In this document: positions 1-60,551 of the stretch, piece by piece
How positions within the stretch are numbered: position 1 is the stretch's first letter
Layout: each line of letters opens with the position of its first letter
NCBI GenBank assembly: GCA_964603945.1
Contig: CAZRWP010000003.1
Coordinates: 6,830 to 70,829 of the forward strand
DNA length: 64,000 bases
From: an uncultured Pseudomonadales bacterium
GTDB lineage: Bacteria; Patescibacteriota; Microgenomatia; UBA1400; UBA1396
Direction: 5' to 3'
Position numbers and translations under genes: made by a program
Notes under the pieces: model-generated
The model's input: only the letters and a program-made list of their open reading frames with translations
Database searches by the model: none
Told to the model about the DNA's origin: nothing

Positions 1-253
1 CCATGGCCATACCCACGCCAGATCGGCAAAGCAGAATTCCCATAACGGTTGGGTCTTGGGTTGGGCTTTCTGCCTGATCAGAAATTGGCTGACTGACCCG
101 CTTAGCGAACTCAGGATAATCATCTTCTGGATTCAATTCGGTCGCCCCACAATCCGTAATTGAAAAGTTTTCCTGACGCAACCAATCAGCTAAATTTTGT
201 TTAAGTTCAAACCCGCCATGGTCACTGCCTATATAAATGTGTGTAATCTTCAT
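1..253 (-). CDS. rpiB: ribose-5-phosphate isomerase B (RpiB/LacAB family), C-terminally truncated by window edge
   Basis: Reverse-strand translation from ATG at 253..251 gives MKITHIYIGSDHGGFELKQNLADWLR...ILLCRSGVGMA, matching the RpiB N-terminal IGSDHxGxELK and CxxGxGM signatures; ATGA overlap with the upstream gene stop. Not in the ORF track because it runs off the window. Confidence 0.7.
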   Translation of the reverse strand, partial: MKITHIYIGSDHGGFELKQNLADWLRQENFSITDCGATELNPEDDYPEFAKRVSQPISDQAESPTQDPTVMGILLCRSGVGMAM

Positions 254-663
254 TTATTCCCTTCTGTAGAATTTGAGTTAATCTGAGATTGAACTGCACC
301 AAGTTGTTCAGCTCGATTTGGGTTAATAAGACCAGCTTGACTCATGCCTGGCTGGCCAAGTTTATTTTCTCCAAACTGGCCGACCGGTGAAAATATTCCC
401 TCCCATTCTCTAGTCTGAAATCCCAAGGCCTTCGCCTCTTCTGATCTGGCTGAGGCAGAACCAGCAAGCGTCAGAACCGGCAACTTGAGAATTGCCCGGG
501 GATCTTCCTGCCAAGCTCTCATTAACTGCCAGAGTTGATCGACGCGGTTTTTGTTGGCTGGATGATCAAGATTAACCTCAGTAAATTCAATAGACCGCTT
601 GGTTAAAAAGTGACTGGCCATTACACCGCGCGGACAAGTATCAGAAGTGTACAAGGTATACAT
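250..663 (-). CDS. ArsC/Spx-family thioredoxin-fold protein (possible)
   Basis: N-terminus MYTLYTSDTCPRG...IEFTEVNLDHP resembles the Spx/ArsC-family start (LYTSxxC...); 137 aa; the second Cys of the CxxC motif is absent (CPRG). Confidence 0.4.
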   Translation of the reverse strand: MYTLYTSDTCPRGVMASHFLTKRSIEFTEVNLDHPANKNRVDQLWQLMRAWQEDPRAILKLPVLTLAGSASARSEEAKALGFQTREWEGIFSPVGQFGENKLGQPGMSQAGLINPNRAEQLGAVQSQINSNSTEGNK

Positions 664-723
664 TTAGTTTATTCTAGGGTTCTAACTTGATTGAGTCTAG
701 TTGTGGGTAATAGTTGATAGAGC

Positions 724-1071
724 TTAAAACCCGAGCTCAGCGCGCGCTGACTCACTCATTGACTCAAGGCTCCAAGGCGGGTCAAAGGTTAATTCAAGTG
801 AAATGTCGGTGTTGGGGTCAAATGCTTGGGCGGGATCATCATTGGCCAAATCAGCTAAGGCAGATCTAATCATATACTGAAAGGATCCGGCCAGCGGGCA
901 TCCAGGCGTGGTTAGGGTATAACGGATTTGCACCATTACGTGGCCATTTTGCGTTTGATCAGGCGTCAAAACTTTAACGTCATAAATTAGGCCCATAGCC
1001 ACCAAACTAAGATTTGTTTCCGGATCCATAACCTGGTTTAGCCGCTCGTAAATTTGTTCGGTGGTAATCAT
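724..1071 (-). CDS. DUF59/MIP18-like Fe-S cluster assembly protein (SufT-like)
   Basis: 115 aa; the MITTEQIYERLNQVMDPE...GCPLAG pattern is typical of DUF59 metal-sulfur cluster biosynthesis proteins. Confidence 0.5.
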   Translation of the reverse strand: MITTEQIYERLNQVMDPETNLSLVAMGLIYDVKVLTPDQTQNGHVMVQIRYTLTTPGCPLAGSFQYMIRSALADLANDDPAQAFDPNTDISLELTFDPPWSLESMSESARAELGF

Positions 1072-1093
1072 ATGTTGATAAATCTCAGTGCGA

Positions 1094-2911
1094 TTAGGCG
1101 ACTTTTATTTTTTCCATTTCGGCTAGCGTGGTGATTTGCTCAACTGACTTGTCATCGCGAAACTTTACCAGACGAGGAAACCGTAAGGCCAAACCGGCGG
1201 TGTGCGTAGGAGATTGGGTAATTTCATCGGCGGCTACTTCTACCACAATTCCGGGCGGTAGCATAACGTCTGGCGTTAATAGATCGGGGATTTCTACTGA
1301 TAAATTGGCTGTATTGGCGGAGACACTTCCGCGCTCAGCCAGCACATCATCAGCACGCTGTTTCATCTCTCGCCATTGATCGTCGGTCAAGCCGGTGCCA
1401 ATCTTGGCAATAGTTACCAGGTGATCTGATTTTTCATTCTGAATGGCGATTAAAAATGCCCCTAAACCAAAAGCCGTCCGCTTGCCGCGACCATAATAAT
1501 AACCAACCACCACGGCATCAATGGTGTCGGAAAGTTTAGCGGTTGTTCCTTCAGCTTCCTTAAATTTAACCCAATTGAAAGCTTTGCGACCGGCCTCATA
1601 ATTGCCCTGCAGTTTTTTAACCACTACCCCTTCATAACCATTTAACAACTGCTCTGTATGAAACTCACGGAGTTCAACCGGATCACTAGTTTTGATATAA
1701 GGCGACAACACCAAATCAGCCGAGCGAACTGAACTCAAAATACTTTTTAGCTTGGCTTTTCGTTCTTCCAGCGGGAAACGGAGAAGTGATTTTCCATCCA
1801 GATACAATAGATCAAACACAAAAAAGCGCAAAGGAATTTCCGCCATTACAGCCTCAATATCATGCTTGCGCTTGCGTTTAATTGTCTGCTGAAAAACCAC
1901 CAAGCCGTTGGTGGCCGGATCGTAACCGACAGCTTCGCAGTCCAAAATTACACTTTGCGCATTTATATCCTCCAGCAAGCGCTTGAGCTCCGGAAACATT
2001 AAGGTGTTTTCTTCCAAATTACGGGTAAAGGTGTGCAGTTCTTGCTTGTCAGCGTCCCAATGAATTTGCACGCGCGTACCATCGTACTTAGGTTCTACAA
2101 AAACCTCACCCATCTTGGCGATCATTTCCTGAGAGGTTTTTAACCTATCCGCCAACGCAGGAATTACTGGCACACCCAAAGTTACGTCGAGTTGGGCGGC
2201 GGCTTCCAGGCCGCCGCCTACCACCTTTTCCGCAATAGCGCCGATATCTGGATGCCGCTGGTAAGTTTGATCCAGCACCGCCCGATGCGATTTGTCGCCA
2301 GATAGATACCAAGACAGTGCGTCTAACCAGGTTTTGTCAGAAAATCCGAGCCGCAAATTGCCTAAAACAATGCGCGAAACAAACCGCGACGACAGCGGAT
2401 CTATTTGTTTGAACAATTGCGCCAATTGGTACACTTTTTCTTCCTGACTCCCCTCGCCTGAAGTTTGTGTCAGCTCAATCAAAAAGTTAAAAACTTCTAA
2501 AACATCTAGATTCGATTTTTCAGAATTATCCGCATAACTTTGGTTAGTAAATTGCTCTTTTACCTCCTGAGCCAAACTTCCAATGTCTCCCAACTGTTTA
2601 TAACGCTTACTTAGTCGCTTGAGTTCGGTGGGATCGGCGCCAGCATCACCAAATAATGATTGCCCTTCACTGGGATGTAATTGAGCCAGCGCTCTTAACA
2701 TAAAAGCAATTCCGACATTAGTCTGCGGATTAGCATAGACCGGACCCAGCTGACCCAAGCTTAGATATAGGTAAGGTTTTACTTCTGATGGCTCCGCCAA
2801 ATCAGGCTGAAGTTGTTTTAAAAATTCCGCCAGCAGAGCTGTTTGTTCCAACTTACTACTTGTAGCCTCTAGCGGCTTTAATAGTTTTTGAGAGAATTCT
2901 GAAAAAGTCAT
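1094..2911 (-). CDS. ATP-dependent DNA ligase
   Basis: 605 aa; adenylation motif I EPKYDGTRVQIH (KxDGxR) and overall ligase I-type layout. Confidence 0.85.
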   Translation of the reverse strand: MTFSEFSQKLLKPLEATSSKLEQTALLAEFLKQLQPDLAEPSEVKPYLYLSLGQLGPVYANPQTNVGIAFMLRALAQLHPSEGQSLFGDAGADPTELKRLSKRYKQLGDIGSLAQEVKEQFTNQSYADNSEKSNLDVLEVFNFLIELTQTSGEGSQEEKVYQLAQLFKQIDPLSSRFVSRIVLGNLRLGFSDKTWLDALSWYLSGDKSHRAVLDQTYQRHPDIGAIAEKVVGGGLEAAAQLDVTLGVPVIPALADRLKTSQEMIAKMGEVFVEPKYDGTRVQIHWDADKQELHTFTRNLEENTLMFPELKRLLEDINAQSVILDCEAVGYDPATNGLVVFQQTIKRKRKHDIEAVMAEIPLRFFVFDLLYLDGKSLLRFPLEERKAKLKSILSSVRSADLVLSPYIKTSDPVELREFHTEQLLNGYEGVVVKKLQGNYEAGRKAFNWVKFKEAEGTTAKLSDTIDAVVVGYYYGRGKRTAFGLGAFLIAIQNEKSDHLVTIAKIGTGLTDDQWREMKQRADDVLAERGSVSANTANLSVEIPDLLTPDVMLPPGIVVEVAADEITQSPTHTAGLALRFPRLVKFRDDKSVEQITTLAEMEKIKVA

Positions 2912-2943
2912 ACCGTTAGTATACCTGGAAGGTTGATGAAAGT

Positions 2944-3028
2944 AGGATCATCCTTGCGTTTAGTTTCCTTGAGAAGGATCATCCTAGGATGATCCTTCCA
3001 GGCAAGCGGAGGGGCAAGGATGATCCTT
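2944..3028. repeat. Family A palindromic intergenic repeat element, copy 1
   Basis: Element layout is AAGGATCATCCTTGC – 16-nt spacer – AAGGATCATCCTAGGATGATCCTTC – 16-nt spacer – GCAAGGATGATCCTT (copy 1 begins AGGAT). The three conserved modules are identical in the 4 copies (2944, 8729, 38571, 60466). Confidence 0.9.
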
Positions 3029-3043
3029 CCAGGTTTAAAAAAA

Positions 3044-4165
3044 TTAAACTGCCACATCGGTCAATGAATAAGACACACCCTTGGTCACACCATGTTTGCG
3101 AATTAGGCCCTTATCCATCAGGTCTTTAAGGTCACGTAAAATGGTGTCGGTTGAAACCATCGGCAAAATCTCATTTAAATCAGATGAGGTGACACGACCT
3201 TGCTCTTGCAAGTACTCCATGATAATCAGCTGACGCTCGGTTAAAGCTACCTGCTGGCCAAGCTTCTTTTGCATGCGGAAATCCTGTGACAGTTTTAAAA
3301 CGGACTGCTTAATTCGGTCAAGCTCAATCGCCAAACCATAGGAAAAGTATTCCAACCAGTATGTCATGTCATTATTAGGACTTTCCTGAACTGACTTGAT
3401 CGCTAGGTAATAGTTTTCAATGTCGTTGTCAAAGTATTGCTCCAGAGAGAAAAACCGCTTAACGTCATAGCCTTCGGCATATAACAAGGCCAATGCCATA
3501 GCGCGGGACATGCGGCCATTTCCCTCAATAAACGGATGGATATTCACTAATTCATAATGCATAACCCCAGCTCGAATAATCTTATGCAAACTTAAAGAAC
3601 TAGAATTATTGATCCAGCCCAAAAATTCACTTATTTGCTGAGGAACCTCTTCCGGAGCCGGCGGTCGGTAGGCCACTTGACCACTTTCCACACTGCGAAC
3701 AACTACTCTTTGGGTGCGGTAAACGCCACATTGTTCAGGCGGGACAATTCGGTGCACCGAGATTGAGTGCAAGGTTTTCAGCATGTCTTCGGTGTAGACT
3801 GGCTGACCCTTGAGATTCTTACCCCAGTCATTAATCCAATCCAAAACCGCTCGGTAATTCAGCACTTCCTGAATGTCGCGCTCCTTACCAACTACACCAG
3901 CCTTGCTGGCTACTTCATCTGGGCTTGTCCCCTCAACTGAGAGGACTCTTTCTGCTTGTTCTTCGCTTAATTCATTACCTTCCAGGCGAGTGCCATGATA
4001 AACCGTTCTAACCTTGGCTTCTTGCTGAAATTTCATTTCCCAAGCTGGCACAATTGGCGAGTGACGAATTACTTCGCGAGAGGCCTCGATACTGGAAATG
4101 TATTGAAGAAGATTGTGTGATATCTGAAATTTTGGTTGATACATGGGTATATTTTCCTCCTGCAA
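3044..4165 (-). CDS. Fic family protein (AMPylation/phosphocholination domain) with C-terminal winged-helix region
   Basis: Fic motif HPFIEGNGRMSRA (HPFx[DE]GNGR); 373 aa. Confidence 0.85.
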   Translation of the reverse strand: MQEENIPMYQPKFQISHNLLQYISSIEASREVIRHSPIVPAWEMKFQQEAKVRTVYHGTRLEGNELSEEQAERVLSVEGTSPDEVASKAGVVGKERDIQEVLNYRAVLDWINDWGKNLKGQPVYTEDMLKTLHSISVHRIVPPEQCGVYRTQRVVVRSVESGQVAYRPPAPEEVPQQISEFLGWINNSSSLSLHKIIRAGVMHYELVNIHPFIEGNGRMSRAMALALLYAEGYDVKRFFSLEQYFDNDIENYYLAIKSVQESPNNDMTYWLEYFSYGLAIELDRIKQSVLKLSQDFRMQKKLGQQVALTERQLIIMEYLQEQGRVTSSDLNEILPMVSTDTILRDLKDLMDKGLIRKHGVTKGVSYSLTDVAV

Positions 4166-5329: not shown

Positions 5330-5389
5330 CTAACTAGTATAAGTACAAAACCGAAGAAGTTCTACGTAGGGCTGAGTTTGGGGGGATGA

Positions 5390-5580
5390 GTTTTTTGTGG
5401 AGGGGTAAATTTGGATCGGTTGATTTTGAGGGGACTGAGTTTGTGGGTTGATTTGGGCGAGTTGATTTTGAGGGGACTGAGTTTGTGGGTTGGCTGAATT
5501 TGAAGTCTGAATTTGGCTTGGCTGATTTAGGATTGGCTGATTTAGGGTTGACTAATTTAGGATTGGCTGATTAGGCTGTT
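5390..5580. repeat. G/T-rich tandem repeat tract (two ~42-bp units, then ~5 units of ~15 bp TTGGCTGATTTAGGA), with multiple G-runs
   Basis: GTTGATTTTGAGGGGACTGAGTTTGTGGGTTG occurs twice (5419 and 5461), followed by GGCTGATTTAGGATTGGCTGATTTAGGGTTGACTAATTTAGGATTGGCTGATT; lies between the recF stop and the YjeF-C gene start. Confidence 0.85.
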
Positions 5581-6641
5581 TTGGCTTGGTTGAGGATTTC
5601 TACATCTAGACTCACTTGTTCAGGCACTTCTTGCCCGGGGACAGTCGTAACAATTGCCTGAATTCCCTTGGTAGCTTTCAAAAGGTAGCGACAATTTTCA
5701 TCATCCAATTCTGAAAAAACATCATCTAGAAGCAAAATCGGATCTTCACCAAGTTTTTCCCGCAAATACTCCACTTCTCTTAATTTAAACCAAAGCAAGC
5801 TGAGGCGTTGTTCACCCCTTGAACCAAATGTAGTAATGTCGCGCCAATCGTCGTTGCGCTCAATCATAATTCGCCAGTCATCTTTATGCGGACCTACTAA
5901 TGTGTGTCCAGCCGCCACTTCCTGATTGGCATACTGACGCAGACGGGCTTCAGAAATTATGGAGTGATCATACTCAAGCTGATATTTTTCACGAATCCCC
6001 GGATCAAGCTGGAGCCAGTTGAGATAAGTTTGGCGCTGATCATGAAGGTAGGTGCCGTTTTGGATTAGCAATCTATCCCAGTAAAAAAAGTCCTGACGAG
6101 TGGCTTCATGGTCGCGTAGTTGAAGGATTAGCTTGTTGCGGCGGCGCAGAGCTTGCTCATACTGCGTGAGCGCACGACGGTATTTGGGATCCGTTTGAGT
6201 GAGAATATCGTCCAGGAGCTCGCGGCGTGCCGCTGGCCCCACCTGAAAAATCAACATATCCTCTGGCGTGAACAGCACAGTCGCCATCTCGCCGACAATG
6301 TCGGCGCGCCGCTTCCCTACCCCGTTAATTTTGTAGGTGCGTCGGGCAGTTTTCTTGCCTTGCAGTTGGCCGTGAGTCAGGACTTGCTCCAGCTCCACCT
6401 TCTCACCGCTCTCATGAAGAGAGGTCGATTTGAGGCGCGCCAGGTCAGCTTGCCATTCAATCAGCTCCTCGGTTTTGCCCGTGCGCCAACTTTTACCGGT
6501 AGACAATAAGCGAATCGCTTCGATTAAATTAGATTTACCAGAACCATTGGGCGCAACAAAAACATTGAGGCCCGGCTTGAACTGCCAGACCTGTTCCTCA
6601 ATTGATCGAAAATGCTGAAGCCACAGCCCTTTAATAAGCAT
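5571..6641 (-). CDS. recF: DNA replication and repair protein RecF
   Basis: Walker A PNGSGKSNLIEAI and N-terminal MLIKGLWLQHFRS. Start chosen at the internal Met (6641); the ORF track start at 6680 lies inside the inverted repeat of the adjacent element. Confidence 0.85.
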   Translation of the reverse strand: MLIKGLWLQHFRSIEEQVWQFKPGLNVFVAPNGSGKSNLIEAIRLLSTGKSWRTGKTEELIEWQADLARLKSTSLHESGEKVELEQVLTHGQLQGKKTARRTYKINGVGKRRADIVGEMATVLFTPEDMLIFQVGPAARRELLDDILTQTDPKYRRALTQYEQALRRRNKLILQLRDHEATRQDFFYWDRLLIQNGTYLHDQRQTYLNWLQLDPGIREKYQLEYDHSIISEARLRQYANQEVAAGHTLVGPHKDDWRIMIERNDDWRDITTFGSRGEQRLSLLWFKLREVEYLREKLGEDPILLLDDVFSELDDENCRYLLKATKGIQAIVTTVPGQEVPEQVSLDVEILNQAKTA

Positions 6642-6665: not shown

Positions 6666-6851
6666 CATTGTTCGCCTCAATCTGGATATAACAGCTATGC
6701 CCAGATCACACCCTTGTCTTTTATTAGTTTTTAGACCCTAAACTTGCCCTAATTTAACCAAAAAAACTAACAAAAAATCTTGAAATATTAGAATTTTGAC
6801 AAGGGTTCAATCTGGAGATAATCACTATATCCAGATTGAGGCGAACTTGTT
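6666..6851. mobile_element. Family C MITE-like element, ~185 bp with ~48-bp imperfect terminal inverted repeats
   Basis: Left arm TTCGCCTCAATCTGGATATAACAGCTATGCCCAGATCACACCCTTGTC and right arm GACAAGGGTTCAATCTGGAGATAATCACTATATCCAGATTGAGGCGAA (ends perfect for 20 bp) flank an AT-rich ~80-bp core. Confidence 0.7.
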
Positions 6852-8635
6852 TAACGCTTAAGCACGGCCATGAAAGCCGATTGCGGAATCTGCACCTGTC
6901 CGATTTCTTTCATGCGCTGCTTGCCGGCCTTCTGCTTTTTGAGCAGTTTTTCGCGTCGGGTTTTGTCGCCACCATATAGCTTGGCGGTCACATCTTTACG
7001 GTAGGACTTAACGGTTTCCCGGGCGATAATCTTGCCACCGATGGCGGCTTGGATCGGGATCTCAAATTGCTGGCGGGGAATTGTTTCTTTGAGTCGCTTC
7101 GTGATGGCGCGTGCAATCCTATCAGCTTGTTCGCGGACCACGATTTGCGACAAAGCCTCTACTTCTTCGCCATGAACCATAATGTTTAATTTAACGGCGC
7201 TTACGGACTCGTAGCCGGTAATGACATATTCCAAAGAGGCAAAACCGGAGGAAACCGACTTCAGTTGATCATGGAAATTCACAATTAGCTCCATTAAGGG
7301 AATTTTGAATACGGCTTTTACGCGGGTGCCGACATCAGCAACTTCCTGCAAGCGGCCGCGATGATCTTCAACTAACTGCATAACCGTGCCCAAATACTGG
7401 CGAGGCGTAAAGATCGTGGCCTTAGTGATTGGCTCACGCAGTTCTAGAACCTGACTGGGATCCGGATATTCACTGGCATGATGAATTGTTTCAATTTCAT
7501 GATTGGTCAACTCTACTTCGTAAGGCACCGATGGCGCGGTTGCCACTAGATCTAAATCGAATTCTCGCTCCAGGCGCTCTTGAACAATTTCTGCATGCAA
7601 AACTCCTAAAAAGCCGACCCTCATGCCATTTCCCAGGGCAGTTGAGTGAGTACCGGTGAATTGTAAGGCCGCGTCATGCAGGCGCAGTTTGTTAATCGCT
7701 TCTTGAAGCAATATAAATTCATCACCGTTGGTTGGATACAAATCCAAATAGACCATTGGTTGAGGAATCTTGTAGCCCGGCAGTGGTTTTACCTTATCCG
7801 CGTTGGAAGCCTGGGTGATGGTGTCGCCAACCTGCACCATGGCGACATCCTTGAGTCCGGTAGCAATATAGCCAACTTCCCCAGCCTTGAGCGACTCAAC
7901 CGAACGGCGGTCTGGGCCAAAAAAACCAATTTCGGTGGGGGAAAATTTGTGATGATTGGCCAAGAGGGAGAGAGGCGCGCGCCGCAGTTCGCCTTCGATG
8001 ACCCGCACGTAAGCTATCACGCCCTGATGGACATCATAAAGCGAGGTGAAAACCAGGGCGCGCGCCGCCTGGTCCACCGGCTCTGGCGCCTCAGGAATTT
8101 TATCGACTATCACTTCAAGTAGGCGGTCAACATTGAGGCCTGACTTAGCTGACACCTCAACCATATCGCTTTCATCAAAGCCAAATGTCTCCATTAGTTC
8201 TAGCGTCACACTTTCCACGTCGGCGGCCGGCAGATCAATCTTGTTAACAACCGGAATAACTTTTAGGTTTAGCGCCTTAGCTTTTTCATAATTAGCCAGC
8301 GTTTGGGCTTGAATACCTTGAGTCGCATCAACCACCAACAAGACTCCCTCGGCGGCGGCCAGCGAACGCGACACTTCGTAACTAAAGTCAACATGTCCTG
8401 GTGTATCAATTAAATTTAACTGATATCGCTTATTTGTCCGAGGATCCTGCCAATTCATGCGAACCGGCGCCATCTTAATAGTGATGCCGCGCTCCTGTTC
8501 AATCGGATTTGAATCCATTAGGCGCTCGGAAAATTCACGTACGCCAATCGTGCTGGTCGCCTGCAACAGGCGATCCGTCAGCGTCGTTTTGCCATGATCA
8601 ATATGAGCGATAATCGAAAAGTTACGGATTGACAT
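6851..8635 (-). CDS. lepA: Elongation factor 4 (LepA)
   Basis: MSIRNFSIIAHIDHGKTTLTDRLL G-domain and 594-aa LepA layout. Confidence 0.95.
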   Translation of the reverse strand: MSIRNFSIIAHIDHGKTTLTDRLLQATSTIGVREFSERLMDSNPIEQERGITIKMAPVRMNWQDPRTNKRYQLNLIDTPGHVDFSYEVSRSLAAAEGVLLVVDATQGIQAQTLANYEKAKALNLKVIPVVNKIDLPAADVESVTLELMETFGFDESDMVEVSAKSGLNVDRLLEVIVDKIPEAPEPVDQAARALVFTSLYDVHQGVIAYVRVIEGELRRAPLSLLANHHKFSPTEIGFFGPDRRSVESLKAGEVGYIATGLKDVAMVQVGDTITQASNADKVKPLPGYKIPQPMVYLDLYPTNGDEFILLQEAINKLRLHDAALQFTGTHSTALGNGMRVGFLGVLHAEIVQERLEREFDLDLVATAPSVPYEVELTNHEIETIHHASEYPDPSQVLELREPITKATIFTPRQYLGTVMQLVEDHRGRLQEVADVGTRVKAVFKIPLMELIVNFHDQLKSVSSGFASLEYVITGYESVSAVKLNIMVHGEEVEALSQIVVREQADRIARAITKRLKETIPRQQFEIPIQAAIGGKIIARETVKSYRKDVTAKLYGGDKTRREKLLKKQKAGKQRMKEIGQVQIPQSAFMAVLKR

Positions 8636-8728: not shown

Positions 8729-8814
8729 AAGGATCATCCTTGCGCTTGGTTTCCTCAAGAAGGATCATCCTAGGATGATCCTTCCAGGCAAAAGGAGGGG
8801 CAAGGATGATCCTT
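8729..8814. repeat. Family A palindromic intergenic repeat element, copy 2
   Basis: Same three conserved modules as copy 1; lies between the divergent lepA and pilin-like genes. Confidence 0.9.
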
Positions 8815-8837: not shown

Positions 8838-9293
8838 ATGATACAATTTCCGCAGACTATGACTTTGTCAAAATTCATCCGCCGATCAACTTTAACCGCA
8901 ACTGCCTTAACTTCATTGCTAACTGCCTCGCCTGCTTGGGCGCAAGGCGCTTGGGAACAGGGTCGCTGTGTTACTACGGTTCAAATGGGCGAGAGTGCAA
9001 ATGCTGTAACAAAAGAAGTCGCCACCTTTAGAGGAATTGAGTGCTTGCTCGCCAATGTTTTAAATGTGGCCGTCACTTTTGTTGGTCTAGCCGCTTTTGT
9101 CATGATTATTTATGGTGCCTTTTTATATTTAACCAGCGGCGGCAGTAGCAAGGGCACTGAGGCCGGCAAGCAAGCCCTGACTTACGCCATCATTGGTATT
9201 GTCGTGGCTTTAATGGCCTTCTGGATACTCAATCTTATTGCTACTTTCACCGGTGTCAGCGGCATTTTAAACTTTAGTTTGTCTCTAGATTGA
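8838..9293 (+). CDS. VirB2/TrbC-like type IV secretion pilin-like small membrane protein (inferred)
   Basis: Sec-type signal peptide ending AWA|QG, then two hydrophobic helices separated by the short loop TSGGSSKGTEAGKQ; this topology and size are typical of T4SS pilins. No family-specific motif verified. Confidence 0.35.
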   Translation: MIQFPQTMTLSKFIRRSTLTATALTSLLTASPAWAQGAWEQGRCVTTVQMGESANAVTKEVATFRGIECLLANVLNVAVTFVGLAAFVMIIYGAFLYLTSGGSSKGTEAGKQALTYAIIGIVVALMAFWILNLIATFTGVSGILNFSLSLD

Positions 9294-37975: not shown

Positions 37976-38503
37976 ATGAAATGGCCTTGGAAAATAAGTC
38001 TTGTTTTGCTGGTGCTCGGCTTGATTGTGGTGTTTTTCTCTTTGCAATCACTGCAGAGCAAGGCGGTGGCGCAGGAGTTAGCGATGAGTGATCGGCCAGA
38101 ACACAAAGATTATTTGTTGGAACATATGTTTGATACTCAGATGCCTGGTTCCTTGTCTTATCAGGTTGAGCGGGGCACAGAAAAGCTGAAGCTCATGTCT
38201 GAGTCCGGTGAAAACCGCACTAACGAGCAGTTGGCTAGGGCAAAACACCGCCTGGAGGCTAGTCAGTATGCCTGGCAGCACGATCACACTTCTGAGGCGA
38301 TCCAGACCCTAAACAAGGCCTTTATTTATCTTTCCCATACTACCGAATCAGCTAATCATTTGGCTCAAAAAACTGAGTTAGCTGATGAAATGGTCAAGAC
38401 CATAGACGAGTGGACTCAATCAGGTGCGTCTGATTCGGAAAAATGTTTACTGAATGAGTTGTCCGCACAATTGCAGGCAGTGCGTCAGCACTATCATTTT
38501 TAG
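37976..38503 (+). CDS. N-terminally membrane-anchored hypothetical protein
   Basis: Signal/TM MKWPWKISLVLLVLGLIVVFFSL. Confidence 0.4.
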   Translation: MKWPWKISLVLLVLGLIVVFFSLQSLQSKAVAQELAMSDRPEHKDYLLEHMFDTQMPGSLSYQVERGTEKLKLMSESGENRTNEQLARAKHRLEASQYAWQHDHTSEAIQTLNKAFIYLSHTTESANHLAQKTELADEMVKTIDEWTQSGASDSEKCLLNELSAQLQAVRQHYHF

Positions 38504-38570: not shown

Positions 38571-38656
38571 AAGGATCATCCTTGCCGTTAGTTTCCTCAA
38601 GAAGGATCATCCTAGGATGATCCTTCCAGGCAAGCGGATGGGCAAGGATGATCCTT
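38571..38656. repeat. Family A palindromic intergenic repeat element, copy 3
   Basis: Same three conserved modules as copy 1; lies upstream of nrdR. Confidence 0.9.
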
Positions 38657-38835
38657 CGTCTTTTAAACTTTCTTCCTTCTCCTTCTCCAACAAACCTCTT
38701 ACCAAACATCCCCTTTACAACCCCCCTCCATAGTGTTTTACTGATTCTCCGACCGCTACCAGTAGCGTTTTGGACCTTAACAATAAGATTGATGGATGCA
38801 CCCAAAGATCCGTCGAAAATGAACACATAAAGTCT

Positions 38836-39333
38836 ATGCAATGTCCATATTGTGGCAAACAACAAAGCTCAGTTTTAGAGAGCCGATTAGCCGAAGATAA
38901 CCGTGCTATTCGCCGGCGTCGTGTTTGTGAATTCTGCGAGAAACGTTTTACCACTTATGAGCGTGTTGAGGGTGTCGATTTGGTCGTCACTAAGAAAAAT
39001 GGCGTTAGTGAATCTTTTGACCGTGAAAAAATCCGCAAGGGAATCGTTAAAGCCACCTGGAAGCGACCGATCGCCATGTCAGATATTGATGAATTAATTG
39101 ATGACGTGGAGCGCCGCTTGCGACAGCGCAAAAACACTAAGGTAAAAAGCTGGGAAATCGGCAATTTGGTCATGAATCGCCTGCGCAAGCTGGATGCAGT
39201 GGCCTATCTGTTATTTGCTTCGGTTTATAAAGATTTCCAGTCATTTGAGGATTTTGAAGAAGAAATCAGTCGTCTCCGCACCGGGAGCGACCAGGACTCT
39301 AATTCACCAGAAATAGGAAAGGGTACGGCATGA
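38836..39333 (+). CDS. nrdR: Transcriptional repressor NrdR
   Basis: MQCPYCGKQQSSVLESR...CEFCEKRFTTYE zinc ribbon plus ATP-cone; start at the internal Met of the longer ORF-track entry. Confidence 0.85.
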   Translation: MQCPYCGKQQSSVLESRLAEDNRAIRRRRVCEFCEKRFTTYERVEGVDLVVTKKNGVSESFDREKIRKGIVKATWKRPIAMSDIDELIDDVERRLRQRKNTKVKSWEIGNLVMNRLRKLDAVAYLLFASVYKDFQSFEDFEEEISRLRTGSDQDSNSPEIGKGTA

Positions 39334-42300
39334 TTCAGAAGGCTACAGCTAAAACCAAAAAAACATCATCTGTTGAGACCGGGCGAAAGGCAAAGGTCAA
39401 GCAGACCCGCCGCAATCAAAACACTCAAAAAACAGCCGTTAATGGTCGGACAAGCAATGGTCAGCTGAGTAAAAGTCAGGCAAAAAATGGTCATTTAAGT
39501 AGCGGACACTCGGCCAATGGCCACTTAACCAAAGCTCAACTTACTAATGGTCACGTCAAGCAGGCTACAACTGAAGTAAATCTAGATTCAGCTGTGTCGC
39601 CACGTCCATACCGCCAAAAAATGAAGTTCACGGAGCGCCAGCTGGATCCCGGCATGGGAATGGCGGTGGCGCGCCGCACCTATCTGCGCAAGAAAGAAGA
39701 TAAAAATGGCAAGGAAAAATGGGAAACCTGGGGTGAGGTAGCTGAGCGCGTCGCGCGCGGGAACACCGCCTTGCTGGGCAAGAAAAAACTTCAGCACCAA
39801 AAAGATGAATACAAGTTGCTCAAAAAACACATCGCCAACGGCTCAATTTTAATGTCCGGCCGCCACCTACAACACGGCGACGAGACTCAGCCAGGACGCA
39901 ACATGGAGGTTTTTACTAATTGTCTAGAAAAAAACACCAAGATTCTCACTCAAGAATATGGTCCAATTGAAATTGGCAAGTTGGCTGGCAAAACAATTAC
40001 CGTCAAAGCGGCTGATGGTGAATGGCGTCAAGCGGAAGCAAAGTCCTATGGAAAGCAAAAACTTTACAAAATTACCTTTGTCCCAAAAACTGGAACAAGC
40101 AATTACTCACACACTGTAGTTGCCACTAGAAATCACCGTTGGTTTTTAGAAGATGGCTCTGTTACTGATAATCTACAAGTTGATGATAGCCTGGATGTAG
40201 CTCCACAGCTCGAAGCTGAAGCTCCTGAAGGAATTCAGCATGGACTAATTTTTGGCGATGGTTCAGCTCACAAAAGCAGAAAAGATTATCCGGTGGAAAT
40301 GGTTTCTCAAGGAAGGGAATATCCAGCCATTCGATTGTGTGGAGCAGATAAGAAATACTTAGAATACTTTGAAGATGAATCAGTTAGTTATCCCCCGCAT
40401 GCCAATGGAGACCCTGTTGTTTACGTTGGCAGAAAATCATTCCTTAAAGATTTGCCATACACACTTGATTCAAGTTATATTGCTGGCTTTATAAAAGGCT
40501 GGTGGATGGCTGGCGGTTCTAAGACATTGACCAATACACAAAGCATCGAGATTTCTACCGTCCGCGAAGATGCCATTGCTTGGCTAGAAGATTACGCCGC
40601 TTATGCTGGCTACATAATCACGTCTCACCGGATTATAGAAAGAAAAGAGCAAGATGGCAGTTATAAAAATGGGAAGCCCTTGCATTGCATTCGACTATCT
40701 CAGACCGCAATTAGAAAAGTTGCCTCCATCGAACCTTTTGGTGAAGATGAGGTTTATTGTGTTGAAGAACCGGTGACAACGGGGTTTGTATTGGCCAATG
40801 GATTATTGACTGGTAACTGCTCCACCGCCTCCAATTCCTACCTTTTGTTTTATTTGTTAATGAACGGTTCCGGCGTCGGTCGCGCCTATGACGACGATAT
40901 GTGCATTGTGGACTGGGATAACATGCCCAATCTGCGCTGTGTTTTGTCGGATGAACACCCGGATTTTGAGTGGGGTAAAGATGAAAGTGTCCGTGACGCC
41001 GAGCACAAATACGGTCACGGTGACACCATTCATTGGTTTGAGGTGCCGGATAGCCGCGAAGGCTGGGCGCAAGCCGTTGAATTGTTAGAGGTAATGGCTT
41101 TTGAGAAAAAATTCAAAAATGACCTGGTGATACTAGACTTTTCTAAGGTTAGAGCCAAGGGCGCGCCGATTCACGGTATGCAGGATCGGCCGGCCTCTGG
41201 GCCTAAACCATTAATGAACGCCATTGAGCGGGTGGCCACCGTTAAAGGAGCTGGCATGTCCGCCTGGAAGCAAGCTATTTTTGTTGACCACTATCTAGCC
41301 GAATGTGTGTTGGTGGGTGGCGCGCGCCGGAGCGCGCGCATCGCGACCAAGGTGTGGACCGATCCGGAAGTTTTGGAATTTATTAACATCAAGCGAGGCG
41401 GCTTTTTGTGGAGTGCCAACAATTCTGTGGCCGTAGATGAAAAATTCTGGGAGCAAAAGACCGCGCACGCCCGAAAAGTTCTTAAAACAATTTTAGAGGC
41501 CAGTTACCATGATGGTACGGGTGAGCCCGGTTTTGTTAATCAGCACATGCTGGTCCAAAATGACGACGGCTACAGCGGTTACAGCGACGGTAAATACGCC
41601 GAGAGCAAAAAATACAAACCAATGGCGCGCACGGAAAAACTTTTAGCCAAGGTTGCCCGCAACGCCGGCGCTAAGGTCTATCACCAAATCCCCAATCCCT
41701 GCGGCGAAATTACCCTTAACATGCTGGGTGGCTACTGCGTGATTGGCGATGTGGTACCATTTTTCGCCCCTAGCTTGGATGCGGCCGAAGAAGCTTTCCG
41801 TGCCGTAACCCGCGCTTTAATTCGCGTCAACTTAATGGACTCTTTGTATAATCGTGAAGTTAAACGCACCAACCGAATTGGTGTCGGCATGACTGGTATT
41901 CACGAGTTTGCTTGGAATGCTTTTGGTTACGACTTCAACGATCTAATTGATGAAGACAAATCTAAAGATTTTTGGCTGACCCTTAATCGCTTTAAACGGG
42001 CAGTTGATGAAGAGGCGACCAAATACGCCAAGACAATTGGTGTTAATGTGCCTCACACCAACACTACCATCAAGCCATCCGGAACAGTTTCCAAGCTATT
42101 TGCCCTGACTGAGGGCGCTCACTTACCCAGTATGCGCGAGTATATTCGTTGGGTGCAGTATCGGTCTGATGACGCCTCGCTCGACTCTTACCGCGAGCAA
42201 GGCTATCCAGTCAAAGAGCTTAAAAGCTATACTGGTTCATCAGTGGTAGGTTTCCCCACTCAACCGATGATCTGCCGCTTGGGCATGGAAGACCGCTTGG

Positions 42301-42686
42301 TCACCGCCGCCGAGGCTTCACCGGAAGACCAATACAAATGGCTGATGTTACTTGAAAAATACTGGATTGTTGGCGTGGATGATGAGGGAAATCCGCTGGA
42401 AGATACTGGTAATCAGGTGTCTTATACTCTCAAGTACAATCCACAAAAAGTGACCTTTGAGGAGTACGCTGACATGGTCAAAAAATACCAAAGTCAGGTC
42501 AAATGCTGCTCAGTTATGCCTCAGCAGGACAATACCGCTTATGAATATCAGCCGGAACAGCCAGTCACCAGTTCAGAATTCATGAAGATCATCCGCGAAA
42601 TTGAGAAGGCCGCCGATGCTGGCGACCTCCACGAGGACATCGACTACGAACACCTGAAATGTTCCACCGGCGCCTGCCCGATTTAA
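39330..42686 (+). CDS. Ribonucleotide reductase catalytic subunit (probably class II/NrdJ-like) containing an intein and an N-terminal NGHL-repeat extension
   Basis: Active-site NPCGEI (VYHQIPNPCGEITL); no NrdB nearby; ATGA overlap with nrdR; a 299-aa insertion is bounded by Cys198 and Asn496|Cys497. Confidence 0.75.
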   Translation: MIQKATAKTKKTSSVETGRKAKVKQTRRNQNTQKTAVNGRTSNGQLSKSQAKNGHLSSGHSANGHLTKAQLTNGHVKQATTEVNLDSAVSPRPYRQKMKFTERQLDPGMGMAVARRTYLRKKEDKNGKEKWETWGEVAERVARGNTALLGKKKLQHQKDEYKLLKKHIANGSILMSGRHLQHGDETQPGRNMEVFTNCLEKNTKILTQEYGPIEIGKLAGKTITVKAADGEWRQAEAKSYGKQKLYKITFVPKTGTSNYSHTVVATRNHRWFLEDGSVTDNLQVDDSLDVAPQLEAEAPEGIQHGLIFGDGSAHKSRKDYPVEMVSQGREYPAIRLCGADKKYLEYFEDESVSYPPHANGDPVVYVGRKSFLKDLPYTLDSSYIAGFIKGWWMAGGSKTLTNTQSIEISTVREDAIAWLEDYAAYAGYIITSHRIIERKEQDGSYKNGKPLHCIRLSQTAIRKVASIEPFGEDEVYCVEEPVTTGFVLANGLLTGNCSTASNSYLLFYLLMNGSGVGRAYDDDMCIVDWDNMPNLRCVLSDEHPDFEWGKDESVRDAEHKYGHGDTIHWFEVPDSREGWAQAVELLEVMAFEKKFKNDLVILDFSKVRAKGAPIHGMQDRPASGPKPLMNAIERVATVKGAGMSAWKQAIFVDHYLAECVLVGGARRSARIATKVWTDPEVLEFINIKRGGFLWSANNSVAVDEKFWEQKTAHARKVLKTILEASYHDGTGEPGFVNQHMLVQNDDGYSGYSDGKYAESKKYKPMARTEKLLAKVARNAGAKVYHQIPNPCGEITLNMLGGYCVIGDVVPFFAPSLDAAEEAFRAVTRALIRVNLMDSLYNREVKRTNRIGVGMTGIHEFAWNAFGYDFNDLIDEDKSKDFWLTLNRFKRAVDEEATKYAKTIGVNVPHTNTTIKPSGTVSKLFALTEGAHLPSMREYIRWVQYRSDDASLDSYREQGYPVKELKSYTGSSVVGFPTQPMICRLGMEDRLVTAAEASPEDQYKWLMLLEKYWIVGVDDEGNPLEDTGNQVSYTLKYNPQKVTFEEYADMVKKYQSQVKCCSVMPQQDNTAYEYQPEQPVTSSEFMKIIREIEKAADAGDLHEDIDYEHLKCSTGACPI
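39921..40817 (+). mobile_element. Intein with LAGLIDADG-type homing endonuclease motifs inside the ribonucleotide reductase gene
   Basis: Begins at CLEKNTKIL (Cys1), ends ...LLTGN followed by the extein Cys; internal motifs GLIFGDGSAHKS and AGFIKGWWMAGGS (LAGLIDADG-like). The penultimate residue is Gly rather than the usual His. Confidence 0.6.
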
Positions 42687-47085: not shown

Positions 47086-47200
47086 GTTTTACATTCTCCA
47101 TTTGATCAAGTAGCCGCCCGTCACTTGATTACATTCTCCATTTACTCAAGGCATGAGCCGTCACCAGATTATAGTCTCTCCCTCTGATAAACTACAGCCT
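47086..47200. repeat. Family C-related degenerate repeat segment (tandem ACATTCTCCATTT...TCAAG units; ends in the ATAGTCTCTCCCT motif)
   Basis: Shares GCCCGTCACTTGA and CCAGATTATAGTCTCTCCCT with the arms of the element at 61992–62178. Confidence 0.6.
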
Positions 47201-49716: not shown

Positions 49717-49740
49717 ATGAAAGTACTAACAAAATGTCTT

Positions 49741-49830
49741 TGTAAGCCTCACTTACACAATGTTCACCTCAAGGAAGCCTCACCCGGGTGAGGCTTCCTT
49801 GAGGAAGTGTGAATGTAAGCCTCGCTTACA
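49741..49830. repeat. Family B long-hairpin element copy 1 (38-bp perfect palindrome CCTCAAGGAAGCCTCACCCGGGTGAGGCTTCCTTGAGG at 49767–49804 with flanking TGTAAGCCTCRCTTACA repeats)
   Basis: Read directly; sits immediately upstream of the -35 of the rRNA promoter. Confidence 0.9.
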
Positions 49831-49842
49831 ATTCCTCCCTCC

Positions 49843-49870
49843 TTGACACCTGGCGGACCCCATGTACAAT
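49843..49870 (+). promoter_or_regulatory. Strong sigma70-type promoter TTGACA-16-TACAAT, likely the 16S rRNA promoter
   Basis: Consensus -35 and near-consensus -10 about 430 nt upstream of the mature 16S 5' end. Confidence 0.55.
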
Positions 49871-50299: not shown

Positions 50300-51799
<1,500 letters not shown>

Positions 51800-51891
51800 T
51801 AAGGAGTTTGAGGTGGAGACTCACGCCTCTTTCCTCGCTCGACAGCAATGTCAGCAAAAACTCCAAGACCCGTGGACATAATTGCCCGGGC

Positions 51892-51909
51892 CATCCTGTC
51901 AGTTTGTGT
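51892..51909 (+). other. 3' half of the 16S precursor processing stem
   Basis: See the 5' half-stem feature (50233–50250). Confidence 0.7.
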
Positions 51910-51956
51910 GGTGTTTATTGATAAACGCTGTGATCTTTTACTTTTTAAAATTGATG

Positions 51957-51986
51957 AAAAGCGCTCTAGGGGCGCTTTTTTCATAA
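51957..51986 (+). terminator. Intrinsic terminator after the 16S rRNA (AAAAGCGC-TCTAGGG-GCGCTTTTTT)
   Basis: GC stem with T-tract ~160 nt after the 16S 3' end; implies the 16S is not co-transcribed with a 23S. Confidence 0.6.
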
Positions 51987-52089
51987 TTATTTTGCCAGAA
52001 TTTTAATTTGTTATTGATGATTATGCTTAAATTCTAACCATAGCTGATGAAATCAGTGATATCATAGGGGCAAATTAGAGAGGGCGAAT

Positions 52090-52449
52090 ATGGGAGAAGG
52101 TTTAGGAGATGGCGGTGGGGCCAGTCAGCGACGAGAAAGAGCTGAGAGAGATAAAAAACTAATTAATGTACGCGTTCAGTTTCCAAACAGAGACAGATTG
52201 TCGACGATGATATTTGGTCATGGCATAATTGAAAGTAACCCGCAGGCGCTTGTTCTAATTGATAGAATTGGAGGCCAATTACTTTCCGCTGAGCAATTTG
52301 TTGATGTCTGGATTGAAGTATTTAACGGTAATCAAAGGCAAGATCTAAATAATATTATGGGATTGTTTGAACTTGGTCAGCCTTTTCAACAAGAAGTTCG
52401 GAAAATACTCGGGCAAAAATTGATGGATTCTTACCTATCCACCCGTTAA
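52090..52449 (+). CDS. hypothetical protein
   Basis: 119-aa ORF between the 16S and the HD-domain gene; weak support. Confidence 0.3.
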   Translation: MGEGLGDGGGASQRRERAERDKKLINVRVQFPNRDRLSTMIFGHGIIESNPQALVLIDRIGGQLLSAEQFVDVWIEVFNGNQRQDLNNIMGLFELGQPFQQEVRKILGQKLMDSYLSTR

Positions 52450-52496
52450 ATAATTGGGGTAATTAAGTTGTTTTTAATTTAGTCTCGTTATTTGTT

Positions 52497-53027
52497 TTAA
52501 CGGTTAAACACTTCAATTAAAAAACCGACGTGCTCGGCTAATGGTTTGTCGATGAGTTGAGCGCCTTGCTCAATGTCGTCGCGGCTGACATTAGCGGCAA
52601 AACTTTTGTTTTTGAGTTTTTTATTAACGGATGACCATTTCATGCCGGCAAATTTGGCCGGTCGCACCTTGGCTACCGCGTCTAAAAAGCCGCAAATTTC
52701 ATCACAGGCAAACAAATAGCGTTCAATTTGGGTGTCGGGTTGTTGGCCGGTGCGGTCAGGCGCGTGGGCGGTGATGGCCGCAATGATTTCAGCTGGAACG
52801 TCAGCTTGGGGCAAAATGTCGTTAACAGCTTTATTGGGGTGTTCATCCGGAAACTGTTCCCAATCAAGATCATGCAAAAGGCCGGCGATATACCAGGAGT
52901 CAGTATCCTGATTAAGATTATTAGCGTAGGCTTCCATGGCCTGAGCCACCATCTGACAGTGCCGGCGAAGCGAGGGATTTGCAATGTATTTTTCCATGAG
53001 TTGCTGAGCTTCTTGACGGGAGATCAT
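52497..53027 (-). CDS. HD-domain metal-dependent phosphohydrolase
   Basis: The H...HD motif (IAGLLHDLDWEQ) and downstream D; 176 aa. Confidence 0.6.
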   Translation of the reverse strand: MISRQEAQQLMEKYIANPSLRRHCQMVAQAMEAYANNLNQDTDSWYIAGLLHDLDWEQFPDEHPNKAVNDILPQADVPAEIIAAITAHAPDRTGQQPDTQIERYLFACDEICGFLDAVAKVRPAKFAGMKWSSVNKKLKNKSFAANVSRDDIEQGAQLIDKPLAEHVGFLIEVFNR

Positions 53028-53233
53028 AGGGGTTAGGATAAACCCTAAAGACTAATAGCTCAAGAGCGACTAATAGTGATTAATTTATCTGCTTTGTGCA
53101 ATTGAGCGCAATCGGCCCAAGGGTTTATATGGATACTTTTGCAATTACAATGGCCCGATATTCCTTTTAGGCAAAGTTTTGTTACAATACGCTGTATGCT
53201 TGCAAGCCTGGTCGTGGCTAGTTTGCAACCCAA

Positions 53234-53307
53234 GAGAGTATAGCTCAGTTGGTTAGAGCGCAGTCCTGATAAGACTGAGGCCCCTGGTTCGAGTCCAGGT
53301 ACTCTCA
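53234..53307 (+). tRNA. tRNA-Ile (anticodon GAT)
   Basis: Acceptor GAGAGTA/TACTCTC, D-arm AGCTCAGTTGGTTAGAGC, anticodon loop CTGATAA, T-arm GGTTCGAGTCC; no encoded CCA. Confidence 0.9.
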
Positions 53308-53527
53308 CATCCTTCTTTCCCCTTTTGCTCCACAAGGAAGGCTAAAGCCTTGGCTTTCGTCGCAAAAGGCAAAAGAAGTTTCTAGGTTTATTTCTGAGTT
53401 GGTCTAGAGTCCAATTGGCTAGAATGCTAAAAACATTTCTGCTTTTTTGTATGTCTCATAAAATATGGTATTACTAAATTATTAAAGCGTAGCGGCAATC
53501 TCCCCTGATATAATAACCTTCTTAGCG

Positions 53528-55195: not shown

Positions 55196-55310
55196 GCAAT
55201 CGCTTTTAGCCGAGGCATTGTCACGGGCTAGTTGAGGCGAACCAACCCTCCGGGAAATCCGGATATTGCCGGTATTGTAACGGTTTGCCCGGCTGAAAGG
55301 CAAGGAGGAG

Positions 55311-60450: not shown

Positions 60451-60465
60451 TTTTTTTCTGCCTGG

Positions 60466-60551
60466 AAGGATCATCCTTGCCCCTTGTCTAGTCTGGAAGG
60501 ATCATCCTAGGATGATCCTTCTCGAGGAAAATAAAGGCAAGGATGATCCTT
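60466..60551. repeat. Family A palindromic intergenic repeat element, copy 4 (inverted orientation relative to copies 1–3)
   Basis: The modules are identical, and the spacers match copies 1–3 only after reverse complementing. Confidence 0.9.

Follow-up and report, generated by a model that had tools for sequence, protein, structure and literature searches.

The element and its surroundings

The window, a stretch of 64,000 nucleotides, contains dnaA, dnaN, rnpA and yidC. The sign of the GC skew changes at about 16–20 kb, indicating that a replication origin lies within the window. Among species-representative genomes, the relatives of the class II ribonucleotide reductase encoded here are nearly all labelled Patescibacteria, Microgenomates or Pacebacteria, the closest with about 90% identity. 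The host is a Patescibacterium, an ultra-small bacterium of the CPR/Patescibacteria. Repeat families A, B and C are present in the window (Table 1). Family A is an 86-bp element with four copies in the window, which were located where the preliminary description had placed them, except that copy 1 starts at 2943 and not at 2944. Their tandem, divergent and convergent gene contexts also agree with that description. Copy 4 is inverted, as had been noted, and its minus strand aligns with the spacers of copies 1–3.

Table 1. Coordinates of the repeat copies, their neighbouring genes and the Y1 HUH transposase genes. Labels beginning with L denote contigs outside the window.
Feature	Location	Strand	Description
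Family-A copy 1	2943..3028	+	86 bp; first base T, not A (TAGGATC...); ATP-dependent DNA ligase gene 1094-2911 minus (start side), Fic/HTH gene 3044-4165 minus (stop side); tandem
Family-A copy 2	8729..8814	+	86 bp; lepA 6851-8635 minus, T4SS-pilin-like gene 8838-9293 plus; divergent
Family-A copy 3	38571..38656	+	86 bp; DUF5667-like gene 37976-38503 plus, then downstream nrdR (ATG 38836) and the class II ribonucleotide reductase gene 39330-42686, with nrdR before it; tandem on the plus strand
Family-A copy 4	60466..60551	-	inverted relative to copies 1–3; GAPDH 59344-60450 plus, 465-aa ORF 60588-61985 minus; convergent
Family B	49740-49845, 55301-55406; also on L018 and L030		96-bp palindrome with four AAGCCTCAC at 31-13-31
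Family C	47087-47183, 61992-62178		third repeat family of the window
Family A'	GCA_964598125.1 (L039, L121, L122)		three copies; closest sequenced relative
Y1 gene adjacent to family A	L033 4104-4538 = L001 5798-6232		144 aa; HUH (NHFHF) and YxxxNP motifs
Paralogous Y1 gene	L013 988-1425		145 aa; 40% identical to the A-adjacent Y1 protein; L013 also carries a family-A copy

The family-A element consists of AAGGATCATCCTTGC, a 16-nt spacer, AAGGATCATCCT joined directly to AGGATGATCCTT, a second 16-nt spacer and GCAAGGATGATCCTT. The two inner 13-mer sites share a 2-nt overlap and thereby form a 24-bp palindrome, which together with the flanking G and C is a perfect 26-bp palindrome in all four window copies. 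The outer modules, AAGGATCATCCTTGC and GCAAGGATGATCCTT, are the same in all four copies except for the first base of copy 1. This base is the single exception to the invariance of the modules that had been claimed, and all other differences between the window copies are restricted to the two 16-nt spacers. When AAGGATSATCCTT was searched with at most one mismatch, 16 matches were found in the window, four in each element, versus 0.12 expected; none of 100 shuffles gave more than 2. The element is therefore a distinct multi-module unit and no chance palindrome, in line with the earlier view.

Distribution on related contigs

The 20-mer core of family A was found in 36 copies on 34 metagenome contigs, which represent about 27 distinct loci and 28 different element sequences. 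The contigs derive from the same species and near relatives, as several of them match parts of the window with 88–99% identity. The occurrence of the element is thus not limited to local duplication within the window. The exact 20-mer had no match in 185,579 species-representative genomes or in viral contigs, a scan that is blind to sister families, whose core differs. Short-read assemblies break within the element, as expected of a multi-copy repeat: the Logan contig L001 breaks inside copy 1, and L116 ends inside copy 4.

Every full copy at the about 27 loci is exactly 86 bp long. All family-A copies are intergenic, both orientations are present, and many copies lie 7–60 bp away from a gene end. 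Among 22 loci, 10 are in tandem, 5 in convergent and 7 in divergent gene contexts, and 15 are downstream of at least one gene. Where the flanking genes are in tandem, the element points either way relative to them, at about 7 to 3. The 40 genes that flank 25 other family-A loci are ordinary housekeeping genes without a common function. No target-site duplication was detected, since none of 25 loci has a direct repeat of at least 2 bp at its junctions, and no fixed flanking tetranucleotide was seen at the family-A copies. The palindrome extends into the flanks more often than with permuted flanks (P about 0.002–0.006).

The 13-mer module was not found outside full or half elements in 223 kb of related contigs. 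As the module is never alone there, single sites of the uptake-signal, parS or matS-like kind were rejected. A restriction-site role was also rejected, because GATC, GGATC, GGATG and CCTAGG all occur in the module and none of them is avoided in the rest of the window. The preliminary description had asked whether a REP or MITE family of the same sequence is already known. Rfam gave no match on the element at gathering thresholds, and a permissive Rfam search returned generic hairpin (miRNA-precursor) matches alone, far below threshold. BLAST of the family-A consensus against plasmids and phages gave no match, and the 13-mer gave no result in the searched literature.

Conservation of the modules and turnover of the sites

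Family A has invariant modules and varies almost only in its spacers, which are about 80–90% alike. The copies were retrieved with a perfect core, so the invariance of the core is partly due to ascertainment; the outer modules lie outside the query and are equally constant. Orthologous pairs of copies were also compared. Copy 1 has orthologues in L006 and L016, with flanks 99% identical. The orthologues of copy 3 in L025 and L026, with flanks 97–98% identical, differ from it at 6 of 32 spacer positions and 1 of 54 module positions. The site orthologous to copy 2 in L012 (flanks 88% identical) and the orthologue of copy 4 in L027 (flanks 93% identical) are half elements, each of which arose from a deletion between the direct repeats AGGATGATCCTT. 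Over the orthologous pairs, the differences were 1.7% in the flanks, 4.4% in the spacers and 0.3% in the modules. By our count, about 10–11 independent changes fell in the spacers and 1 in a module; with the search core excluded, we calculated from these counts a P of about 0.004 for this bias. Such conservation of the modules in vertical descent would also fit a host function or gene conversion between copies.

The sites are stable within 88–99% nucleotide identity and differ between more distant lineages. An exact look-up of the LepA protein returned no match. Copies are present in the syntenic lepA region (about 20 kb) of the window and of two relatives, one with 86% and one with 82% LepA identity, and the three have none of them in common. 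The window has its copies between the Fic and ligase genes and between the pilin and lepA genes; the 86% relative has copies in two other intergenic regions, and the 82% relative has one between lepA and a recF-like gene. A one-module relic may be present between the Fic and ligase genes of the 82% relative. At the site of copy 1, no element is present in the 86% relative (L117). At the site of copy 2, none is present in relatives with 95%, 86% and 82% LepA identity, and L131 has a B'-type palindrome in the same intergenic region. L039 has no element at the site of copy 3, and L040 has a B'-type palindrome at the equivalent place. Likewise, the reductase region contains one copy in the window and two in L039, none of them common. 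No clean empty site was found among these comparisons, as the unfilled intergenic regions of the 95%, 86% and 82% LepA relatives and of L039 are too diverged for placement of the junctions.

Folding of the element and its sister families

Family A can be read as an inverted doublet of a 43-nt unit, composed of a module, the 16-nt spacer and a module. As single-stranded DNA or RNA, it would fold into one long hairpin with two perfect stems of 15 bp and 11–12 bp and a variable 16x16-nt internal loop. Two side-by-side hairpins would be an alternative fold. The RNA hairpins predicted for the window copies are very stable on both strands, with -46 to -62 kcal/mol (z -6.5 to -9.6), and the DNA hairpin is predicted at about -30 kcal/mol (z -7 to -9). 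Within one element, the spacers do not complement each other (5–9 of 16 positions). No conserved pairing was detected in the spacers, and no covarying pairs were found within family A. A structured RNA with a conserved spacer fold is not supported, given the lack of covarying pairs within the family, the spacers without conserved pairing and the mixed orientation.

The A' elements of the closest sequenced relative have the outer module AAGGAATATCTTTGC and the centre AAGGATATTCCT joined to AGGAATATCCTT. Their modules differ from those of family A at 10–12 of 54 positions, and the stems are still perfect (15/15 and 12/12). The AAGGA/TCCTT arms are common to A and A', while the central 3 nt differ, the A' module being AAGGA-ATA-TCYTT. 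Exact dyad symmetry of each 13-mer, earlier taken as a property of the element, is thus not conserved, because the A' centre (ATA/TAT) is non-palindromic; the complementarity of the arms and the spacing are kept instead. The module centres are 31-11-31 bp apart without any indel in A, A', the L117 copies and the elements on L135 described below. The spacers are only about 50% alike across families despite this fixed spacing. In the 86% LepA relative (L117-L120), two copies with the family-A module have decayed stems (12–13 of 15).

The pairing of the stems was analysed in a cross-family alignment of 15 A copies, 3 A' copies and 2 decayed copies. In this alignment the long hairpin is 98.7% paired, and seven pairs have changed on both sides, two of which are private to single A' copies. 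The covariation score of the long hairpin is 0.124, compared with at most 0.029 for slid partners, and none of 500 shuffles reached 0.124. The two side-by-side hairpins are 92% paired, with three pairs changed on both sides. A few one-sided changes in the stems are G-U compatible.

Family B shares TTCCTCAAG with family A at the equivalent place, directly 5' of the inner module. Variants of family B, the B'-type palindromes, are present in L040 and L131.

Y1 HUH transposase genes linked to the repeats

On L033 and L001, a Y1 gene starts 42 bp from a family-A copy, with the repeat on one side only. L001 matches window positions 1-3006 with 99.97% identity and runs 3.3 kb past the window start, which places this gene about 2.8–3.2 kb before window position 1. 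The tyrosine motif of its product is YILSNP. The paralogous Y1 gene on L013 is flanked by 51-nt inverted repeats of family C, a family also present in the window. This paralogue was first flagged by a local tblastn search with RayT and IS200 TnpA queries; the case for homology rests on searches of Pfam, NCBIfam, PDB and protein folds, not on these queries. At E <= 1e-4, Pfam did not pick out the A-adjacent Y1 gene among the flanking genes; it was found as the 40% paralogue of the L013 gene.

For the Pfam model Y1_Tnp (cut-off 23 bits), the L013 paralogue passes with 28.4 bits and the A-adjacent protein stays below with 19.1 bits. The best NCBIfam model is NF047646, 'REP-associated tyrosine transposase', with 28–47 bits versus a cut-off of 80; the A-adjacent protein scores 28 bits. 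A profile of the Y1 proteins has its best solved-structure match in 4ER8 (TnpA-REP). With an AlphaFold model (pLDDT 80), the top 30 fold matches are all Y1 HUH transposases. The best superposition is again that of 4ER8 (TM 0.65, rmsd 3.0 Å), and the IS200/IS608/ISDra2 enzymes score similarly.

Only four homologues of the A-adjacent Y1 protein were found among 5.8 billion proteins. The 78% identical orthologue (L133/L134), which comes from the same Logan study as the 86% LepA relative, has a family-A copy 43 bp upstream at the orthologous locus. The gene for the 49% homologue (L135, GCA_964385325.1) has 86-bp elements with the module layout of family A on both sides, 42 bp upstream and 8 bp downstream. 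The outer modules of these elements are of A' type, and the spacer holds AGTTTCCTCAAG in common with family A. Family-C-type repeats are present on the flanks of the gene for the 44% homologue, like those of the L013 paralogue, and the fourth homologue is 31% identical. Taken alone, the one-sided adjacency of the Y1 gene and the element in the window lineage would have a chance probability that we estimate at roughly 1 in 10.

Comparison with known repeat systems

REPINs and their RAYT or TnpA-REP enzymes have been described in Pseudomonas and enterobacteria, and REPINs also in Neisseria (PMC3116915, PMC3337134, bioRxiv 10.1101/2021.07.10.451892). REPINs are extragenic and have invariant ends, compensatory changes and a less conserved spacer, in which length and the capacity to form a hairpin matter; they accompany a single-copy RAYT gene, duplicate slowly and persist for a long time (PMC3116915; bioRxiv 10.1101/2021.07.10.451892). 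In these papers, REPIN-RAYT systems are argued to be vertically inherited replicators that persist in genomes. Family A resembles them in most of these respects. Both are extragenic palindromic doublets of about 90–100 bp in which the ends are invariant and the spacer is less conserved but constant in length, with compensatory changes in the stems and no target duplication. Both have singlet or half forms as decay products, persist long and move slowly. A small Y1 HUH gene with the repeat beside or around it is likewise common to both, which for family A was found in three genomes. In both, a single lineage can also contain several families that have separate enzymes, in this case A and C with the two paralogues. 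The preliminary description had set the element apart from a simple REP, and this distinction is contradicted by the features listed here. The protein-binding array proposed in the same place was right in one part, as recognition of family A by a protein is likely, and wrong in the other, as the anatomy and behaviour are of REP type instead of non-REP.

Family A also differs from REPINs. Its unit is 43 nt long with two 13-nt modules and not a 20–40-bp REP hairpin, and the doublet comprises four modules, with a perfect 26-bp palindrome in its centre and no tip spacer. Most described REP families are defined by a GTAG (or CGTC) tag, which is located at the foot of the hairpin (PMC3733652). In contrast, neither GTAG nor CGTC is present in the family-A consensus or at a fixed position in the flank. 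The enzyme is very distant from the curated RAYT models, as its NCBIfam scores indicate, and in the window lineage the repeat is on one side of the gene only. The host is a Patescibacterium, not a proteobacterium.

The IS200/IS605 elements, such as IS608 and ISDra2 with their TnpA, have the same enzyme fold as that predicted for the family-A Y1 protein. Their enzymes recognise hairpins of single-strand DNA, and they insert without target duplication beside a specific tetra- or pentanucleotide. Their subterminal hairpins differ between the left and the right end, and the transposase gene is part of the element, which moves as one piece. In contrast, the family-A copies are gene-free symmetric doublets without a fixed flanking tetranucleotide. 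Correia elements duplicate a TA target, and no Y1 enzyme is known to be linked to Correia or ERIC-type palindromes; family A differs from Correia elements in having no target duplication and four copies of one module. The likeness to Correia (CREE), ERIC and MITE-like palindromes lies in the intergenic position, the inverted-repeat ends and a length of roughly 100–150 bp, and elements of the Correia/ERIC type form long hairpins when transcribed and can affect neighbour genes (PMC2649163, PMC2229807, PMC10969869). Within Correia elements there are an IHF site and promoter elements (PMC2649163).

TIGR arrays with Tas proteins also occur in Patescibacteria, as tandem arrays of 5–15 units with 8–12-nt repeats, 9-nt hypervariable spacers and an adjoining Nop-domain gene (PMC12045711). 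Family A is similar to them in that short conserved repeats alternate with two variable stretches, and both can be drawn as stem, bubble and stem. It differs in being solitary and dispersed, with spacers about 80–90% alike within the family. A TIGR-Tas array was therefore rejected (PMC12045711), as the copies are kilobases apart and no Nop-domain gene is present among the neighbours.

Evaluation of the possible explanations

The sequence comparisons indicate that family A is probably a REPIN-like non-autonomous repeat that a dedicated Y1 HUH transposase of the RAYT type, specific for single strands, most likely copies in trans. On the best reading, the system is new for the phylum Patescibacteria and atypical, with four modules and no GTAG tag. 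Family A has presumably moved by transposition. TnpA-REP and the IS200/IS608 enzymes act on single-stranded DNA by cutting and rejoining it. The Y1 enzyme would bind the hairpin stems of the AAGGA-N3-TCCTT modules. By analogy with E. coli TnpA-REP and IS200/IS608 TnpA, it might cut and rejoin single-stranded DNA without target duplication, for example at a replication fork, and this activity would spread the element. Besides the one-sided adjacency, the scores of the A-adjacent protein below the curated cut-offs and the absence of a GTAG or CGTC tag, further points count against this explanation. Neither a transposition event nor an excision was seen. There is also only one element-enzyme locus per genome, as in REPIN-RAYT systems, so the independent observations that link the element to the enzyme are few.

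The modules could instead serve the host on double-stranded DNA, as four dyad-like AAGGA-N3-TCCTT sites for a dimeric nucleoid, insulator or regulatory protein, with past spread that was maybe transposition. The distances of 31, 11 and 31 bp between module centres are near 3, 1 and 3 helical turns and invariant in all families. Retention of the AAGGA/TCCTT arms in A' while the central 3 nt change, and the low module divergence in vertical descent (0.3% versus 4.4% in the spacers and 1.7% in the flanks), also agree with such a site, as do the 7 of 22 loci between divergent genes and near promoters. However, the motif is never single in the 223 kb, unlike the sites of known nucleoid or regulatory proteins, and the loci are lineage-specific without orthologous regulatory targets. 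Copies in the 86% relative have decayed modules. The two compensated double changes that are each confined to one A' copy point to pairing of the arms and not to reading of a fixed sequence. In addition, no candidate binder was found besides the Y1 enzyme, and the neighbour genes have no common function. This explanation is therefore considered unlikely. A function at the RNA level appears quite improbable as the main role. In that case a co-transcribed hairpin would act as a bidirectional terminator, a stabiliser of 3' ends or an RNase III site, like E. coli REPs, ERIC and Correia elements. It would be consistent with the predicted stability of the RNA hairpins on both strands, the G-U compatible changes, the 15 of 22 loci downstream of at least one gene and the many copies 7–60 bp from gene ends. 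In contrast, none of the window copies has a U-tract after the hairpin, whichever strand is read, and a terminator scan was at background (9 found, 9.5 expected). With 7 of 22 loci between divergent starts in addition, an intrinsic terminator was rejected. The mixed orientation relative to tandem genes (about 7 to 3), the spacers without conserved pairing or covariation and the lack of an Rfam match further argue against an RNA element. An RNA-level effect could coexist with the REPIN-like nature of family A as a side effect. A host function on DNA or RNA is placed second because single sites are absent, the locations are specific to lineages and the orientations are mixed, and it could explain the conservation of modules at individual loci.

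A classical MITE, that is a deletion derivative of a DDE-type insertion sequence whose transposase binds the 15-bp terminal inverted repeats and the internal subterminal repeats, is very unlikely. Family A does have perfect terminal inverted repeats, is small, non-coding and dispersed and has lineage-specific variants, and with two binding sites at each end it would be similar to transposons that have multiple subterminal sites. However, target-site duplication is absent at all 25 loci, and neither a longer element with the same ends nor a DDE transposase was found in the window, the 223 kb of related contigs and the 40 flanking genes. Family-A copies are still present at orthologous sites where nucleotide identity has fallen to 88%, in contrast to MITEs, for which a short life has been described (bioRxiv 10.1101/2021.07.10.451892). 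The sole transposase linked to the element is the Y1 HUH enzyme.

Implications for REPIN-RAYT systems

Among the top-ranked literature that pairs RAYT terms with Patescibacteria or the candidate phyla radiation, no REPIN-RAYT system was described for these taxa. Family A and its enzyme might form a persistent REPIN-RAYT partnership outside the Proteobacteria, in an ultra-small, streamlined genome of the Patescibacteria. It would use a non-GTAG logic (AAGGA-N3-TCCTT four times, at 31-11-31) that co-changes with the enzyme. Its copies would be under purifying selection, so that the host or the element-enzyme pair would depend on them, and at least two such pairs (A and C), perhaps with a third (B), would exist in one genome. 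This extended reading is tentative, and we hold it to be possible and somewhat doubtful.

If family A is indeed a REPIN-RAYT system, the range of these systems extends to bacteria that are usually described as having very small, gene-dense genomes. For practical work, the family-A repeats break short-read assemblies of the host and could serve as strain markers. The families A, A', the L135 type and family C with its paralogue would provide natural enzyme-substrate variants for the reading of non-GTAG hairpins by Y1 HUH enzymes.

Family C and a probable partner Y1 gene

In addition to family A, the 86-bp REPIN-like intergenic element, the window carries other intergenic repeats. Family C is present as one inverted doublet without a gene and one tandem pair. 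In L013, a locus of a related genome, two family-C arms flank a Y1 HUH transposase gene above the Pfam threshold, and in L136 a Y1 HUH gene likewise lies between family-C arms. With arms flanking the gene in these two loci, and a gene-free doublet and a tandem pair in the window, family C and the Y1 gene look like a second enzyme-repeat pair within the window's lineage.

Coordinates of repeats, genes and RNA features (L-numbers, loci of related genomes)
Feature	Location	Context
Family C	window 47087-47183 and 61992-62178	second stretch adjoins tRNA-Tyr (62186-62269)
Family C arms	L013 894-944 and 1413-1463	either side of Y1 HUH transposase gene
Family B	window 49740-49845 and 55301-55406	mutually opposite orientation
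Family B, other copies	L018 ~5762-5857; L030 ~2988-3083	
Family B variants	L040 5236-5307; L131 ~1215-1295	
Family A flanks with recurrent patterns	window 3029-3050, 60440-60465; L117 12899-12910; L021, L035, L023, L015, L031	
Lone module-like site	L121 15781-15800	Fic/ligase region, 82% relative
42-nt unit, four tandem copies	window 5403-5561	between recF-like and carbohydrate-kinase genes
49-nt inverted repeat pair	window 6670-6846	between lepA and recF-like gene
Short tandem repeat, CAAATGGC-like units	window 59225-59296	upstream of GAPDH gene
16S rRNA gene	window 50300-51798	followed by 1.4-kb spacer with two ORFs
Spacer ORFs	window 52090-52449; 52497-53027 (minus)	second is HD-domain ORF
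AdoCbl-II riboswitch	window 58107-58196	47 bits, above threshold; upstream of ORF 58330-59181
Conserved region upstream of nrdR	window 38690-38835; L039 ~5370-5494	
Class II ribonucleotide reductase	window 39330-42686; L039 6037-8445	

Family B and the rRNA locus

Family B is a nested palindrome of 96 bp, in which AAGCCTCAC occurs four times at 31-13-31 spacing. TTCCTCAAG is common to families A and B and occupies the same position in each. No transposase was detected beside any family-B copy. The two window copies bracket the 16S rRNA gene, its spacer ORFs and the tRNA-Ile and tRNA-Ala genes that come next (region 50300-53603). The remaining 10 kb of the window past this region contains no 23S rRNA gene, so the rRNA genes appear to be unlinked.

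Region upstream of nrdR

Between the window and the closest relative, about 130 nt upstream of nrdR are far better preserved than the intergenic DNA around them, with blocks such as, in order, CCAAACATCC, CTTTACAAC, CTCCATAGTGTTTTACTG, CGCTACCAGTAG and ATTGATGGATGCACCCA. This region has no Rfam match; its possible roles are those of a promoter, an NrdR-box region or a leader. In the window, the ORF for class II ribonucleotide reductase is 1118 aa long, versus 802 aa for its counterpart in the closest relative, which suggests an insertion of about 300 aa in the window protein. Pfam recognised neither an intein nor an endonuclease domain in it.

Family A flanks and repeat turnover

An A7TT run lies 8-10 nt past the "+" right end of family A at five loci, and TGTAAGA directly adjoins the left end at four loci spread over different genomes. 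The shorter TGTAAG is also found at family-B ends, and it precedes the start codon by 20-30 nt in all five Y1 genes examined. These flank patterns may stem from a preferred target, from an end that extends further or from a promoter element. At the position orthologous to window copy 1, the 82% relative (LepA identity) has a lone module-like site, AAGGAGTCTCCTT, after which come ACTCAAG and a stretch resembling a spacer. Its central 3 nt are unlike both family A and its diverged sister family A', and the site may be what is left of an old copy there.

Two further structured intergenic sites hold different repeats in different genomes. Where the window has the 42-nt tandem repeats, the 86% relative carries a family-A copy, and where it has the 49-nt inverted repeat pair, the 82% relative carries an A' copy. 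In this clade, different repeats appear to have colonised the intergenic regions again and again.
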